Positions 14,893 through 40,974 of a DNA stretch of 64,000 nt are shown here, piece by piece. Under the pieces are notes generated by a model. It did not search any database. It was not told where the DNA came from and was given only the letters and a program-made list of their open reading frames with translations. How positions within the stretch are numbered: position 1 is the first letter of the stretch; each line of letters begins with the position of its first letter. Source of the DNA: an uncultured Gammaproteobacteria bacterium. Its GTDB lineage: Bacteria > Patescibacteriota > Microgenomatia > 0-14-0-10-38-17. The position numbers and the translations under genes are program-made. The stretch is taken from assembly GCA_964348895.1 (NCBI GenBank), contig CAYGEH010000001.1:453586-517585 (forward strand). The letters run 5' to 3'.

Positions 14893-15279
14893 GGCACTAT
14901 AGGACAATAAATTATGTTTTCTAGCAGTAAATATATCAAAGTACTAATTATTTTGTCAAGGGAAAAAACATCTTTTTCTAAAAAATAGCCACAAAAGATA
15001 TTATTTGACATATTCTTTAATAAAAAGGTAAGGTTTTAAGAACTAGGTCAGTTTTTAGTGCCTAAAATTTAAATTAAAAAAAGAGAATAAAGTGATTATT
15101 TATTGATGATTTAATTAATAAGGGTTTTGGCGAGTGGTCACAATAAAAATCTTCTGGTTGACTTTAAGATTCTCTTGTGATAAAAATTAGTTTGCTTACC
15201 GAAGACAGCAGGAGCTTTTCTATTTTTAAGACTAACTTTCATTTTTTCAAAAAGGGGTCAAGAAAAGCTTAATTTCCCG

Positions 15280-15345
15280 CCGAGGTATATGTTTGTTATT
15301 GCGCTTAGTTATTAACAACACCTCGGAAAGAGGTGTTTTTTTTTT
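15280..15345 (+). promoter_or_regulatory. rplJ (L10) leader: intrinsic terminator hairpin with a competing upstream antiterminator pairing, i.e. an attenuator
   Basis: Terminator CACCUC-GGAAA-GAGGUG at 15319-15335 followed by a U10 run (15336-15345), 7 nt before the rplJ ATG. The upstream CCGAGGU (15280-15286) can pair with ACCUCGG (15320-15326), which excludes the terminator stem. Confidence 0.5.
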
Positions 15346-15351
15346 GAGACG

Positions 15352-15882
15352 ATGGTTAAACAAACAAAGCTTTACGAAGTTGACAATTTAAGGGCAAAGA
15401 TTAATGACTCGAAAGGGTTTTTTTTGGTGGGCTATCAAGGTTGGGACGCTAATTTATTTAATTTGTTGCGCCATACAGTTAGCCAAAAAGGCGGTCACTT
15501 AAAGGTGGTCAGAAACAATCTTTTTAGCAGGGCAATTAAAGATCTAACTGGTAGAGAAGAAAAAATAACTGGTCCAACCGCCTGCCTTTTCAGTCTGGTT
15601 GATGAGGTGACTCCCCTGTCTGTTCTGTGTAATTTCTTGAAAGAAAATAATCTTGATCCAGATCTAAAATTAGGTTTTTTAACAAAAACAGAACAACCCC
15701 TAGACAGCCAAGAAGCGTTTCGATTAGCCAAACTGCCTTCGGTAGACAACTTGAGGGCAATGTTAGTTGGGGGATTATCGGCAAACTTGAGCAAGCTAGT
15801 AATAACCCTTAACTCTCCGATTAGAAGTTTTACTTTGTTACTCAAAGTGTTACAAGAAAACAAGGGGGTGAATAAACAGTGA
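15352..15882 (+). CDS. rplJ: 50S ribosomal protein L10
   Basis: Typical L10 N-terminus ('KLYEVDNLRAKINDSKGFFLVGYQG'); 176 aa; immediately precedes rplL. Confidence 0.9.
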   Translation: MVKQTKLYEVDNLRAKINDSKGFFLVGYQGWDANLFNLLRHTVSQKGGHLKVVRNNLFSRAIKDLTGREEKITGPTACLFSLVDEVTPLSVLCNFLKENNLDPDLKLGFLTKTEQPLDSQEAFRLAKLPSVDNLRAMLVGGLSANLSKLVITLNSPIRSFTLLLKVLQENKGVNKQ

Positions 15883-16295
15883 CTGATGATAAGAAAAAAG
15901 ACCAAAAAACATCAAAGAAAGTTTCTTTGTTAATCGAAGAAATTGGTTCTCTTTCTGTTTTAGAGCTGGCAGACTTGGTTAGCGCCTTAGAAGAAAAATT
16001 TGGGGTTTCTGCCGCCGCTGCGATTACTCCGGTTGCCGCTGGGGCGACTGCGGTTAGCGAAGCTGGTGCGACAGAAGAAAAATCAACCTACACGGTGATT
16101 CTTCAAGAAATTGGCGGAAACAAGGTAGGGTTAATTAAGGCTGTTAGAGAAATCAATCAAAATTTGGGAATAAAAGAAGCCAAAGACTTAGTAGAAAGTG
16201 CTCCTGCCGAAATTTTAAAAGAGGTTAAGAAAGAAGAGGCAGAAGTGGCAGCCAAAAAGCTACAAGAAGCAGGAGGAAAGGTGGAGTTAAAGTAA
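15879..16295 (+). CDS. rplL: 50S ribosomal protein L7/L12
   Basis: 'LELADLVSALEEKFGVSAAAA', an Ala-rich hinge and the C-terminal 'GLIKAVREI...LGIKEAKDLVESAP' domain. GTG start overlapping the rplJ stop. Confidence 0.9.
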   Translation: MTDDKKKDQKTSKKVSLLIEEIGSLSVLELADLVSALEEKFGVSAAAAITPVAAGATAVSEAGATEEKSTYTVILQEIGGNKVGLIKAVREINQNLGIKEAKDLVESAPAEILKEVKKEEAEVAAKKLQEAGGKVELK

Positions 16296-16322
16296 GTTCA
16301 CAATCGTGATAGAATAAGGCCT

Positions 16323-16511
16323 ATGGTGGCAAGAGTTGTCAAATTTTTAATAGAAGCACAGGGTGAGCTCAAAAAAGTTGTTTGGCCAACCCAAAAAGAG
16401 ATTGTGAACTTAACCATTGTGGTGTTAGCCGTTTCTTTGGCTGTAGGCCTTTTCTTAACTGGAGCAGACTTTGTTTTTAGTTGGCTAATCAAGTTAATAA
16501 TTGATTATTAA
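16323..16511 (+). CDS. secE: Preprotein translocase subunit SecE
   Basis: 62 aa, with 'ELKKVVWPTQKEIVNLTIVVLAVSLAVGLFL' (single TM). Located upstream of nusG. Confidence 0.8.
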   Translation: MVARVVKFLIEAQGELKKVVWPTQKEIVNLTIVVLAVSLAVGLFLTGADFVFSWLIKLIIDY

Positions 16512-16521
16512 ATTTATTTTT

Positions 16522-17103
16522 ATGGTAGAGGAAAAGAAAAAAACTAAAAATCATTGGGTTATTAGCGAAGGCAATAATCCTGAAGCTAAATGGTATATTC
16601 TTCATACCTATTCTGGTCAAGAGTCTAGGGTGGCTAAGATTTTGCAACAACGAATCCAGTCTTTAAAATTAGAAGGCAGATTTTTCGAGATCTTAATACC
16701 AACAGAAGACAGAATGAAGATAAGAGCAGGGAAGCGCTTCACTAAAGAAGAAATGCTTTTTCCTGGTTATGTTTTTGTCAAAATGATTCTCGACGACAAC
16801 TCTTGGGCGGCCGCAAGGGGAAGCGAAGGGGTGACTGGATTTGTTGGTTCTGGCGATCAACCCACTGCGGTAGCGGAAAAAGAGATTAAGGCGATTGAAA
16901 ACTATTTAGCAACAGAAAAACCTAAATATACCGTTAAATTTTCGACTGGAGAGGCAGTTAAAATTGTTGATGGGCCGTTTACTGGCTTTTTGGGGACAAT
17001 TGACAACATAGACAAAGAGAGGGGGAAGTTACGAGTAATGGTTTCTGTTTTTGGAAGAGAAACCCCAGTAGAATTAGACTTTTTACAAGCAAAGAAAATA
17101 TAA
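16522..17103 (+). CDS. nusG: Transcription termination/antitermination factor NusG
   Basis: NGN domain 'WYILHTYSGQESRVAKIL' and C-terminal KOW 'GEAVKIVDGPFTGFLGTI'. I prefer the ATG at 16522 (just after the secE stop) over the track's TTG at 16501. Confidence 0.85.
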   Translation: MVEEKKKTKNHWVISEGNNPEAKWYILHTYSGQESRVAKILQQRIQSLKLEGRFFEILIPTEDRMKIRAGKRFTKEEMLFPGYVFVKMILDDNSWAAARGSEGVTGFVGSGDQPTAVAEKEIKAIENYLATEKPKYTVKFSTGEAVKIVDGPFTGFLGTIDNIDKERGKLRVMVSVFGRETPVELDFLQAKKI

Positions 17104-17125
17104 GCGAATTGAATGTTGAATAAAT

Positions 17126-17551
17126 ATGGCAAAAAAAATTGTTTCAAAAATTAAATTAAACTTACCAGCAGGAGAGGCGACACCAGCCCCTCCAGTTGGT
17201 CCGGTTTTGGGCCAACATGGAATTCCAATTATGGATTTTGTTAAGCAATATAATGCCGAAACGGCAGAAAAAAAAGGAAGCGTTATTCCAGTTGAAATTA
17301 CTGTTTATGAGGATCGTAGTTTTGACTTTATTACCAAACTACCGCCAGTGGCAGACCTTATCAAGAAAGCACTTAAGTTAGAAAAAGGGTCGGCAGAACC
17401 GGGACGTAATTCAGCGGGAAAGTTAACACAGGAACAAATATCCAATATCGCTAAAGAGAAAATGATTGACTTTAACACCAGCGATTTAGAGTCTGCCCGA
17501 AAAATTATTATAGGAGCAGCCAAGAGCATGGGAGTGGAGGTGGAAAAATAA
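17126..17551 (+). CDS. rplK: 50S ribosomal protein L11
   Basis: '[30 protein letters not shown]' is the diagnostic L11 N-terminus. Confidence 0.95.
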
Positions 17552-18315
17552 TGGGAAGAAAAAAAACGATTGAGATTAGCAAGGATAGCGTGAAAACTAA
17601 AAGCAGGCTTCCTGAAACAAAAGAAGAACTAGTCTCGCCTAAAGAAAAAGAAAATCTGGAAAAGCCCGCTAAAGAAAAAAAGAAAGCTAGGGGGAAAAGT
17701 GAAAAAAAAGTGCTAAAAAAGTCAAAGAAAGGAGTAAACTACCTAAAGGCTCTAAAACAGATAGAAAAGAAAAAAATATATTCTCCAGAAGAAGCGATGT
17801 CTTTGTTAAAGAAGATAGCTTGGGCTAATTTCAATGAGGCGGTTGAGGCACACCTGGTGGTTAAGAGAGAGGGGATTTCGGTTAAGGTTAATTTTCCCCA
17901 TGATCAAGGCAAAAGAAAAACGATTGCCATCGCAGACAATAAAGAAACGATGGCCAAAATAGAAACAGGAAAAATTGATTTTGACATATTATTGGCAAGT
18001 CCCAAAATGATGCCCAAACTAATTCCCTATGCTCGTTTCTTGGGGCCTCGAGGATTAATGCCAAACCCCAAGGAGGGAACGGTTAGTGCCGACCCAGCTA
18101 AGAAAGCAAAAGAACTTCTTGCGGCAGGAGTTATAATTAAAACAGAGAAAAAAATACCCCTAATTCATGTTGTTTTTGGTAGGATTAGTCAAGAATCAGC
18201 TCAGCTAAAAGCAAATCTTGAGGCTGTTGTTAAAGCAGTTGGAAAACAAAACATTAAGAGCTTGGCTGTTTCTACCACCATGAGCCCTGGAATTAAAGTT
18301 GAAATTAGTGATTAG
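17551..18315 (+). CDS. rplA: 50S ribosomal protein L1 with a ~55-aa Lys/Glu-rich N-terminal extension
   Basis: Core 'FLGPRGLMPNPKEGTV' and the following sequence match L1. The N-terminal K/E-rich tail has no counterpart in model-organism L1. Confidence 0.9.
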   Translation: MGRKKTIEISKDSVKTKSRLPETKEELVSPKEKENLEKPAKEKKKARGKSEKKVLKKSKKGVNYLKALKQIEKKKIYSPEEAMSLLKKIAWANFNEAVEAHLVVKREGISVKVNFPHDQGKRKTIAIADNKETMAKIETGKIDFDILLASPKMMPKLIPYARFLGPRGLMPNPKEGTVSADPAKKAKELLAAGVIIKTEKKIPLIHVVFGRISQESAQLKANLEAVVKAVGKQNIKSLAVSTTMSPGIKVEISD

Positions 18316-18591
18316 ATTTTAATAAACACTTTTTTTGTCCGCTAGTGTCATTATAAAACCCCTTTCTTTGTATTCTTTCGAGAAAACAATGCGGTCTTTT
18401 GATTGAAACTATGATTTTGGTTTTCCTAATCTTTTCAGCCAAATTAAATCGCTGTTAAGATTTTATTTCTTGTTATTTTAAGTTGACTGGGAATTAAAAA
18501 GAATAGACCTGAAAGGTCAAAAAGACAAGAAATAAGATAATGAAAAAAACTGAAAGTATAGCTTAAGCTAGCCTAGATTTGATTGCTTTGG

Positions 18592-18625
18592 TTGACACAA
18601 CTGCTTAATTTTGCTACTATTATTT
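18592..18625 (+). promoter_or_regulatory. Sigma-70-like promoter (TTGACA-17 nt-TACTAT) driving the noncoding candidate downstream
   Basis: TTGACA at 18592-18597, a 17-nt spacer and TACTAT at 18615-18620. No ORF follows on this strand for about 900 nt. Confidence 0.4.
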
Positions 18626-18631
18626 TAGTCC

Positions 18632-18795
18632 TGCCATTGAGGGGTAAGACTGCACGAGAGTCTTCCTCACCAAGCAAAAGTGTACGGGATCCGAAAGTTT
18701 CTGGCCCTAAAAAGTCGGAATAGGAACCCACCTGGGCAAACCGGGGAACACTTCTGCAGCAACCTCAGGGGCGGGACTTTTGGTGCTTTTTGTCT
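18632..18795 (+). ncRNA. Candidate structured small RNA (~165 nt, unclassified)
   Basis: A GC-richer island in AT-rich intergenic DNA. It contains a clean hairpin GAGG-GUAAGACU-GCACGAG-AGUCUUCC-CUC (18651-18680). The 5' UGAGGGG can pair with the 3' CCUCAGGGG, closing a ~135-nt multi-stem domain. It has no coding potential. Possible identities are 4.5S/SRP, 6S or RNase P-related RNA; I could not verify any of these by eye. Confidence 0.3.
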
Positions 18796-18834
18796 TGTAA
18801 AAACCTCGTTTCAATAACTAGAAAAAGAAGGGTC

Positions 18835-19491
18835 TCAAAGTATTCCTGTCGCAGAGGGGAGGCTAATAAAAACAAACTCAAAAAAACTAACCGCTGGAAC
18901 CAAAACAAGAGAAACAAGAGATCTTCCGAAAAAGACAGGCAATAGGGCAAAAATTAACAAAAAAACTCCATATCTTTTTAAAACTAAGTCAACAGCTTGG
19001 GCGGTTTTTTCTGGCAAGACACCGATCAAAATTTTGCTACCATCAAGAGGATAAATGGGTAAAAGGTTGAAAACCCCTAAAATTATGTTGAGTCTAATTA
19101 GACTCAACATAAGCCCGCTAATGACAAGGCTGTTTAGTCCCAGAAAATAAACAGGCAAACGAAAAAGACCAATAAAAAGAGCGACAACTAAGTTAACCGC
19201 TGGGCCAGCAAGGGCAATTAGGGCATTGTCTCGGCGAGGCTTGTTAAGATTGAACTCGTCAACAGGAACGGGTTTCCCCCAGCCGAAGCCAAAGAAAAAA
19301 AGCATAATCGTACCGATTGGATCAAGGTGGGCAAGAGGATTAAGGGTTAGTCGACCAGAAAACTTAGCGGTGGGATCACCTAATCGGTTAGCGGCCCAAG
19401 CATGAGCAGCCTCATGAACAGTTAAGGCAAAAAGCAAACTAATAACAAAGAGTAGCACGGAAAAGGGATCAGAGAAGATATTGGCAAACAT
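18835..19491 (-). CDS. M50-family site-2-protease-like zinc metalloprotease (SpoIVFB-like)
   Basis: 'LTVHEAAHAWAANRLGD' (HExxH in a TM helix); polytopic; 218 aa. Confidence 0.75.
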   Translation of the reverse strand: MFANIFSDPFSVLLFVISLLFALTVHEAAHAWAANRLGDPTAKFSGRLTLNPLAHLDPIGTIMLFFFGFGWGKPVPVDEFNLNKPRRDNALIALAGPAVNLVVALFIGLFRLPVYFLGLNSLVISGLMLSLIRLNIILGVFNLLPIYPLDGSKILIGVLPEKTAQAVDLVLKRYGVFLLIFALLPVFFGRSLVSLVLVPAVSFFEFVFISLPSATGIL

Positions 19492-19550: not shown

Positions 19551-19778
19551 ATGCACTGTCAATCTTGTACTAAAAGACCAGTTATGGGTGGCAAAATGAT
19601 TAGGACAGGAACCGGGAAGTGGATAAAAAAACGAGTTAAAGTAAAAAGAAGTCCTAATTTACAAAAGACTACCCTGGTGATTTCTGGTCAAGAAAAAGAA
19701 AAAATTATTTGCACCTCTTGTCTTAAAAAATTTAAGAAAGAAGGGAAGGTGAAGGTGGCCTATTTTGTTGGTCAATAG
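19551..19778 (+). CDS. rpmB: 50S ribosomal protein L28
   Basis: 'CQSCTKRPVMGG...' N-terminus and 'SPNLQKTTLVISGQEKEKIICTSCLKKFKKEGKV' align to L28 ('[29 protein letters not shown]'). Confidence 0.65.
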   Translation: MHCQSCTKRPVMGGKMIRTGTGKWIKKRVKVKRSPNLQKTTLVISGQEKEKIICTSCLKKFKKEGKVKVAYFVGQ

Positions 19779-40167: not shown

Positions 40168-40974
40168 ATGAAAATGAGTTTTTTGGCAAAGTTTAACAAA
40201 AAAGGATTTAGTAGTTATTTTCTGATAGCCTTAATAATCTTTTTCTTAGACTTTTGGTTAATATTTAATCCACTAAGGAATGTTTTTGCTTGGGCTCTTC
40301 GTCCACTGAGAGGCTCAACCTACTATTTGCTCGGACAGATTGACTTTGAGGATATTTTTTTATCTAAAAGATTAAAGCAATTGAAAGACGAAAATTGGGA
40401 GTTAAGGAAGAGAATGGTGGAAACAACAGGAGATAGAGTTAGAATACAGCTTCTTCACAGGGAAAATGAGAGGCTAAAAACCTTAATAGATTTTTTTCCC
40501 AAAGAAACAAGTCTTATTCCAGCCAAAGTTCTTGGTCGTCGAGACAACTATTTGATTATCAACAAAGGAGAAGAAGATGGGGTTATTGTTGGTCAAACAG
40601 TGGTCGAAGGGCAGCACCTTGTTGGAAAAATTGTTGCTGTTTATGATCACGAGTCAAGGGTTGTTAAGTTGGGGAGCGCTTCCTTGGATTTGCCAGTGCT
40701 AGTTTTCTCTGATCAACAGGAGTGTTTTAAAGAGCCTCTTTCTTGCCAGAAGGGGAGGGGAATAATTGTTGGAGAAACAGTGAAAGAAATATTAAGAGAA
40801 GAGGAGGTTTTAGCTGGGGACCTAGTTGCTCTTCTTGACGAACCAACGGGAATCTTAGTGGGCAGAATAAGGGAGGTTCGAGAAAGTCAAGATGAGCTCT
40901 ATAAACAAGCCCAAATAGAGAAGTTAATTGATTTTAATCGATTAATTGAAGTTTTTTTGATTGTTGAAGAATGA
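40168..40974 (+). CDS. mreC: Rod-shape-determining protein MreC
   Basis: N-terminal TM helix, a coiled-coil segment ('LKQLKDENWELRKRMVE...ENERLK') and a C-terminal beta-rich domain. Sits between mreB and an mreD-like ORF. Confidence 0.7.
   Translation: MKMSFLAKFNKKGFSSYFLIALIIFFLDFWLIFNPLRNVFAWALRPLRGSTYYLLGQIDFEDIFLSKRLKQLKDENWELRKRMVETTGDRVRIQLLHRENERLKTLIDFFPKETSLIPAKVLGRRDNYLIINKGEEDGVIVGQTVVEGQHLVGKIVAVYDHESRVVKLGSASLDLPVLVFSDQQECFKEPLSCQKGRGIIVGETVKEILREEEVLAGDLVALLDEPTGILVGRIREVRESQDELYKQAQIEKLIDFNRLIEVFLIVEE

Follow-up and report, generated by a model that had tools for sequence, protein, structure and literature searches.

A gap of 520 nucleotides (nt) separates rplA from the gene of an M50 protease in the stretch of DNA analysed here (64,000 nt of contig CAYGEH010000001.1, referred to as the window; all window-level searches were limited to these 64 kb), and it houses a promoter and an RNA. 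Which RNA is made there, and does it belong to a known class? We consider it likely that the locus encodes a lineage-specific 6S-type RNA of the Microgenomates, within the Candidate Phyla Radiation (CPR). Comparison of 18 distinct homologues shows a rod-shaped fold upheld by compensatory substitutions, and a second, mutually exclusive fold is also kept by covariation. The promoter and the parts of the RNA are as follows.

18592-18597, forward strand: -35 box TTGACA, from the promoter scan.
18612-18620, forward strand: extended -10 element TGcTACTAT, with TG at 18612-18613 and TACTAT at 18615-18620.
18627-18781, forward strand: predicted 6S-type RNA of 155 nt, from the Rfam 6S alignment and the covariance models R1, R2 and R3.
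18627-18642, forward strand: 5' strand of the closing stem P1, AGUCCUGCC.UUGAGG, pairing with 18763-18778.
18650-18654, forward strand: 5' strand of helix P2a, CUGCA, pairing with UGCAG at 18755-18759.
18658-18668, forward strand: 5' strand of helix P2, GAGUCUUCCUC (RNA nt 32-42), pairing with 18743-18753.
18669-18685, forward strand: 5' strand of the central bubble, ACCAAGCAAAAGUGUAC, 17 nt, unpaired in the rod.
18674-18683, forward strand: 5' strand of the collapse helix, GCAAAAGUGU, pairing with ACACUUCUGC at 18748-18757.
18686-18729, forward strand: apical stem-loop, with the base GGGAUCC/GGAACCC and the variable hairpin UUCUGGC/GUCGGAA.
18730-18742, forward strand: 3' strand of the central bubble, ACCUGGGCAAACC, 13 nt.
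18731-18735 with 18741-18745, forward strand: 3'-bubble hairpin CCUGG/CCGGG, part of the alternative fold.
18743-18753, forward strand: 3' strand of P2, GGGGAACACUU; P2 contains one C.C mismatch.
18763-18781, forward strand: 3' strand of P1, CCUCAG.GGCGGGACU (paired at 18763-18778), leading into the UUUU tract; P1 has 15 base pairs (bp).

The 5' end of the RNA (A18627 or G18628) was placed from its spacing to the -10 element and the 3' end from the U-tract after the closing stem, in which UUUU is the probable termination point. The predicted length is about 155 nt, where a preliminary description of this DNA had given ~165 nt; the full-length alignment to the Rfam 6S model spans 18625-18781, the predicted homologues measure 147-170 nt, and the folding z-score of the window RNA is -2.9. 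The near-consensus TTGACA-17-TACTAT promoter of that description was recovered by the promoter scan, with 10 of 12 consensus positions, an extended -10 element and a 17-nt spacer between the boxes; it is of the sigma-70 type and conserved in the homologues. The described GC-richer segment in an AT-rich gap is equally real (G+C of 0.53 across 18650-18800 vs 0.26-0.32 in the flanks), the complementarity between the RNA ends corresponds to the closing stem, and the neighbours are as stated, an M50 protease on the opposite strand and then rpmB. The perfect hairpin placed at 18651-18680 could not be retained: the only local hairpin has 6 bp (AAGACU at 18646-51 with AGUCUU at 18659-64), and we discarded it as a conserved element, since it is broken in two homologues (L018 and L019) with no compensatory change. 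As for the claimed lack of an open reading frame (ORF), no credible ORF was found, although mechanical ORFs of 45-52 amino acids overlap the RNA region; homologues differ by compensatory base changes and by indels whose lengths are not divisible by three, and both argue against coding. The general proposal of a promoter-driven, non-coding, structured RNA other than a riboswitch is upheld by the conservation of promoter, body and U-tract and by the covariation.

Homologues were sought by scanning genome and metagenome collections through L1 alignments and then by covariance-model searches. The resulting set comprises 18 distinct sequences from Microgenomates (CPR) contigs: 12 close ones, L021, L060 and L177-L180. 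By covariance model, L021 is a distant homologue (24.8 bits, E = 1.4e-4) and L060 a tentative one, whereas the four sequences L177-L180 were found via M50 homologues of 53-58% identity and scored E = 2e-13 to 4e-11 with a model from whose building they had been absent. Nearly all 18 homologues lie next to one and the same M50 protease gene, at its 3' end. The rplA-gap-M50 arrangement is kept in contigs whose L1 proteins are only 46-67% identical, the RNA being conserved far better than this adjacent protein.

In the gap alignment of 8 close relatives, the -35 box, a TGCTAnTAT -10 element and the RNA body are near-invariant, with TTGACA present in 8 of 8 despite a varying spacer; among close relatives, conservation does not extend to the promoter spacer or past the U-tract on its 3' side. 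Among the more distant homologues, L177, L178 and L180 carry TTGACT as their -35 box, the -35 candidate of L179, TTGTTA, is spaced differently, and all four share a TGnTA extended -10 element, read as TG(C/T)TA. Behind the closing stem, 17 sequences out of 18 have a U-rich tract, the exception being L060, which has GGGGGUUAAGA at this place and a separate terminator hairpin farther downstream. Insertions part rplA from M50 in L011, L018 and L019, and there the RNA remains at the M50 3' end, in L018 and L019 directly abutting the M50 stop codon. The RNA is convergent with M50 in window-type genomes and co-directional with it in L177-L180; in L021 and L060 it has unrelated neighbours. Because it carries its own conserved promoter and is kept beside M50 when the rplA synteny breaks or the orientation flips, the RNA is an independent transcription unit and an appendage of neither neighbour.

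The models R1-R3 found no more members in ~150 other Microgenomates L1 loci, in whose genomes the RNA gene presumably lies elsewhere. A match in L119 and L121 (12 bits) was discarded as lying inside a coding region, and we judged spurious both a full-model match of R2 at 40762-40860 of the window (13.4 bits, E about 1) and weak matches in L059 and L058. A regular-expression scan of all loci for the CCCACC...hairpin motif returned family members only.

The rod is built of P1, P2a, P2, the 17/13-nt central bubble and the apical stem-loop. Across the 18 sequences, aligned by fitting to the rod model (of which four, L177-L180, are independent), 94.2% of cells are paired, vs 75.0% after shuffling and 44-57% when the 3' partners are slid, and 34 of 43 pairs have changed on both sides; with this result, the covariation check on related intergenic regions suggested in the preliminary description came out in favour of a structured RNA. 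Helix 1 of P1 is 100% paired with 8 of its 9 pairs compensatory, and helix 2 of P1 has 5 of 6 (alignment A9). All five pairs of P2a are compensatory across the 18 sequences, with variants such as AAACAA/UUGUUU in L018 and L019 and UUUGA/UCAAG in L178 and L180. P2 is invariant in the 12 close homologues, and over all 18 it shows compensatory changes at 6 of 10 pairs with 96.6% of cells paired.

Universally conserved positions ring the bubble, namely UUCC.UC/GGGGAA atop P2, GGG/CCC at the apical base and the AC that opens the 3' bubble, and all but one of the 18 distinct sequences share an unchanged CCCAC. Beyond its near-invariant GGG/CCC base, the apical stem covaries in the other pairs and varies in length (1-10 nt). 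The rod is also the unconstrained minimum free energy (MFE) structure of L021 (z = -6.3) and L060 (z = -5.2), and the MFE structure of L177, L178 and L180; the MFE structure of L179 is not a clean rod.

For the window-type RNAs, MFE folding and RNAalifold gave a different, collapsed structure (fold B), consisting of the collapse helix, the 3'-bubble hairpin and the local 5' hairpin. The collapse helix corresponds to the inverted repeat I2, 90% complementary (GCA.AAGUGU with ACACUU.UGC), and its formation excludes that of P2 and P2a. Among the 12 close sequences, the rod and fold B are each ~95% paired. Pairing in the collapse helix itself reaches 96%, and L018 and L019, in which it becomes CAAUGAGUGU/ACACUUCUUG, show two compensatory pairs. 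The 3'-bubble hairpin is 100% paired, has a G-C pair exchanged for A-U in L020 and L096 and is extended in L018 and L019.

When the predicted template was blocked in silico (ViennaRNA), the collapse helix and the 3'-bubble hairpin formed in most of ten window-type homologues, and in L007 the 3'-bubble hairpin formed alone; the same treatment of E. coli 6S RNA reproduced its known 9-bp hairpin. A separate observation concerns L178 (3213-3374) and L180 (3219-3384), in which GGAUUUU of the 3' bubble is complementary to AAAAUCC of the P2 3' strand, in likeness to the extended release hairpin of the E. coli type. In L178 this GGAUUUU/AAAAUCC hairpin was read from the sequence, and the constrained fold did not form it. 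Judging by these complementarities, the family may use both release solutions, the E. coli-type hairpin and the B. subtilis-type collapse helix.

How far does this architecture match 6S RNA? At gathering thresholds, Rfam gave nothing at the locus, and in permissive settings the best family was 6S/SsrS (RF00013), matched over its full length with 20.0 bits (E = 0.067). The Rfam check advised earlier thus returned a sub-threshold 6S match and neither signal recognition particle (SRP) RNA, ribonuclease P (RNase P) RNA nor transfer-messenger RNA (tmRNA); of the identities offered in the preliminary description, 6S survives as the best Rfam match and by fold and motifs, and SRP and RNase P RNA had no match. 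6S RNA is a non-coding rod of 160-200 nt with an enlarged internal loop, closing and apical stems and a hairpin opposite the 5' bulge (PMC8414754). The 155 nt of the predicted RNA, marginally under the quoted range, were counted as agreeing with it; the rod fold is present by 18-sequence covariation, a release element by covariation of the 3'-bubble hairpin, and a collapse helix of the type of B. subtilis 6S-1 and A. aeolicus 6S was found as well.

The correspondence extends to the position of individual elements. The P2 5' strand occupies nt 32-41 in E. coli ssrS and nt 32-42 in this RNA, with one internal mismatch in P2 in either case. The 3' bubble has 13 nt in both (131-143 in E. coli), starting with A131CCUUG in E. 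coli and with ACCUGG here. In E. coli 6S RNA, nt 131-136 form a '-10-like' region, of which nt 132-136 pair in the release hairpin (PMC8876501), and in both RNAs this segment could pair where the P2 3' strand begins. A collapse helix between the distal 5' bubble and the P2 3' strand is described for B. subtilis 6S-1 and A. aeolicus 6S RNA, together with a small 3'-bubble hairpin (PMC8876501), and the elements of fold B correspond to these two.

Several points weigh against the assignment to 6S. The RF00013 score of 20.0 bits is far under the gathering threshold of 46.4, and 6S matches near 20 bits occur only in the window and in L001 (20.6 bits); 15 other members, including L021, L060 and L177-L180, gave no 6S match at E<=10. 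In the reverse direction, the family model R3 gave no match to E. coli ssrS. The covariation of P2 rests on distant sequences that were aligned by a model already containing the structure. Energetically, the rod of window-type RNAs lies 3-7.5 kcal/mol above the collapsed MFE structure, whereas the rod is the MFE structure of E. coli 6S RNA. Finally, the genome was covered over 64 kb, which leaves room for a canonical 6S gene elsewhere. We do not claim formal membership in RF00013, whose threshold is an operational sequence criterion and not a biological one.

There are also rival explanations. According to the first, which we regard as rather unlikely, the RNA is a Microgenomates-specific small RNA outside the 6S class, acting by base pairing or protein binding through the stretch GAGAGUCUUCCUCACCAA at 18656-18673. 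This invariant 18-nt stretch is indeed largely single-stranded in the MFE/RNAalifold fold of window-type RNAs and complementary to a GGAGG-like purine run, as are the seed regions of some regulatory RNAs, and a family that is not placed in 6S at the Rfam threshold would fit. However, the stretch is not conserved in sequence in L021, L060 and L179, where its pairing with the opposite strand is conserved, and besides the locus itself no complementary target was found in the 64-kb window. The rod as MFE structure in five of the six distant homologues (L021, L060, L177, L178 and L180) and the 6S-like architecture and bubble-flanking motifs likewise speak against a function of this kind.

A second explanation, which we hold to be unlikely, is that the RNA is no conventional 6S but a CPR-specific two-state riboregulator with a collapsed resting state and an invariant single-stranded pyrimidine-rich segment, both folds being under purifying selection for a novel role, such as another polymerase-binding mode or another partner in these reduced-genome episymbionts.

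Third, the RNA could be a cis element, either a large terminator or a structure in the 3' untranslated region of rplA or M50, or it could regulate the M50 3' end as an antisense RNA. Its immediate surroundings in the window are as follows.

17551-18315, forward strand: rplA, the upstream neighbour of the RNA.
18835-19491, reverse strand: M50 protease gene, downstream of the RNA and convergent with it.
19551-19778, forward strand: rpmB, beyond the M50 protease gene.

Proximity speaks for such an element, as the -35 box begins just 14-19 nt past the L1 stop codon in five relatives and the RNA of L018 and L019 borders directly on the M50 stop codon, and a closing stem with a U-tract is terminator-like. 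Yet the RNA has its own strong promoter in every lineage inspected, its structure is kept whether it is convergent or co-directional with M50 and also away from rplA, its neighbours in L021 and L060 are unrelated, and ~155 nt with five covarying helices far exceed the needs of a terminator. We therefore consider a cis element very improbable.

SRP (4.5S) RNA, a reduced RNase P RNA or tmRNA, proposed on short strings picked out by eye (AAAGUCGG..AUAGG and CAAACCGGGGAAC), is effectively refuted, since none of these families matched even at E<=10 with permissive filters, the P4-like AAAGUCGG of the supposed RNase P string sits in the variable, non-conserved apical hairpin, CCGGGGAAC is accounted for by the 3'-bubble hairpin and the P2 3' strand, and the apical loop varies in sequence and length with no conserved GNRA loop and domain IV motifs as in SRP RNA.

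Returning to the 6S-type reading, we propose a mechanism modelled on that of E. coli 6S and B. subtilis 6S-1 RNA. The rod would mimic an open promoter and occupy the housekeeping sigma-RNA polymerase holoenzyme, and this sequestration would lower transcription when nucleotides are scarce. Upon the return of nucleoside triphosphates, the polymerase would start within the 5' bubble and transcribe a short product RNA, for whose body the P2 5' strand is predicted to be the template. The resulting hybrid of product RNA and 6S RNA would unwind P2, and the freed P2 3' strand could then snap into the collapse helix and the 3'-bubble hairpin, releasing the polymerase. Both polymerase binding and product RNA templating are inferred here from the studied 6S RNAs.

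Candidate pyrimidine start sites of the product RNA are C18675 and C18671, each followed by an A (A18676 and A18672), which would give 5'-GCUUGGUGAGGAAG and 5'-GGUGAGGAAGAC, respectively. Mapped product RNAs are marked by an A next to the start site and by GG at positions 5/6 (PMC8414754). Starting from C18675, the predicted product would carry GG at these two positions; such hallmarks are a matter of compatibility and not evidence. Dual pairing, in one case together with a template role, would explain why 18656-18673 and 18743-18753 are near-frozen in the close set.

Some features of the genomic context deserve a record of their own. The gene order at the locus is L10 leader, rplJ, rplL, secE, nusG, rplK, rplA, gap, M50 protease and rpmB; rplJL thus stands ahead of secE-nusG-rplKA (15181-18315), the reverse of the usual bacterial order, and this is kept in all close relatives. 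The match to the L10 leader has a 47-nt insertion. The L1 protein (17551-18315) has 254 amino acids with a Lys-rich N-terminal extension, so that the Pfam L1 domain aligns only from residue 128, and its homologues in the relatives have comparable N-terminal extensions of variable length. By the best matches of its L1 protein, the window comes from a bacterium of the Microgenomates (CPR) close to Candidatus Shapirobacteria.

The rplA stop codon is separated from the RNA promoter by an AT-rich spacer of 276 nt (18316-18591) that is unique to this genome and resembles none of the fetched loci and no other part of the window. Its minus strand has a terminator-like hairpin (18518-18506), and the spacer also gave a weak match of 16 bits that is DUF805b-like. 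On the other side of the RNA, one or more transfer RNA (tRNA) genes lie on the same strand 50-210 nt downstream in L177 (3247-3527), L178 (3213-3589), L179 (3159-4122), L180 (3219-3600) and L021 (545-869), which suggests that the RNA and these tRNA genes are possibly co-transcribed or processed together.

Many species-representative records of metagenome-assembled genomes titled uncultured Gammaproteobacteria or Pseudomonadales carry L1 operons of the Microgenomates type (L020, L026, L027, L031, L035, L038, L040-L043, L060 and others), and L020 and L060 among them carry the RNA as well. The titles of these records are probably wrong.

To our knowledge, 6S RNA is regarded as nearly universal in bacteria, and its occurrence in one more bacterium is unsurprising in itself; the RNA described here extends a well-known system and is not a new principle. 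In the literature searched, an incomplete collection, we found no mention of 6S RNA together with CPR, Patescibacteria, Microgenomates or candidate divisions, and automatic annotation at Rfam thresholds would leave the locus blank. If the assignment is true, ultra-small, host-dependent bacteria with minimal regulatory repertoires keep global control of the polymerase by an RNA decoy. The 18 sequences, of at least five sequence types, would then serve as a seed alignment for a new covariance model, and the family would be a natural case in which the polymerase-binding rod and the release conformation are both visible through covariation.

Among known systems, the Ms1 RNA binds the core polymerase and not the holoenzyme, is longer and is restricted to Actinobacteria. 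Ms1 is presented as a rod-like, 6S-related RNA that interacts with RNA polymerase (PMC9130861), and it is by this description only, a rod-like 6S-related structure, that it resembles our RNA. With 6S RNA proper, the RNA shares a strong housekeeping promoter of its own and a conservation focused around the bubble. It differs in length (155 nt vs 183 nt in E. coli) because its apical arm is shorter (~44 nt vs ~72 nt), and it is unlike the studied 6S RNAs in ending with a closing stem and U-tract and in its neighbourhood of M50 protease, rplA and tRNA genes.

The 6S-Flavo RNA (RF01685) is specific to one phylum and 6S-like in its architecture; it has diverged too far for RF00013 and is curated as a separate family. 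A cmscan search with RF01685 gave no match at E<=10, and 6S-Flavo differs from our RNA in sequence and host phylum; it provides the precedent for a family of its own. Describing the Microgenomates RNA would be useful for annotation and for the study of 6S evolution, and resembles the splitting of 6S-Flavo from RF00013.

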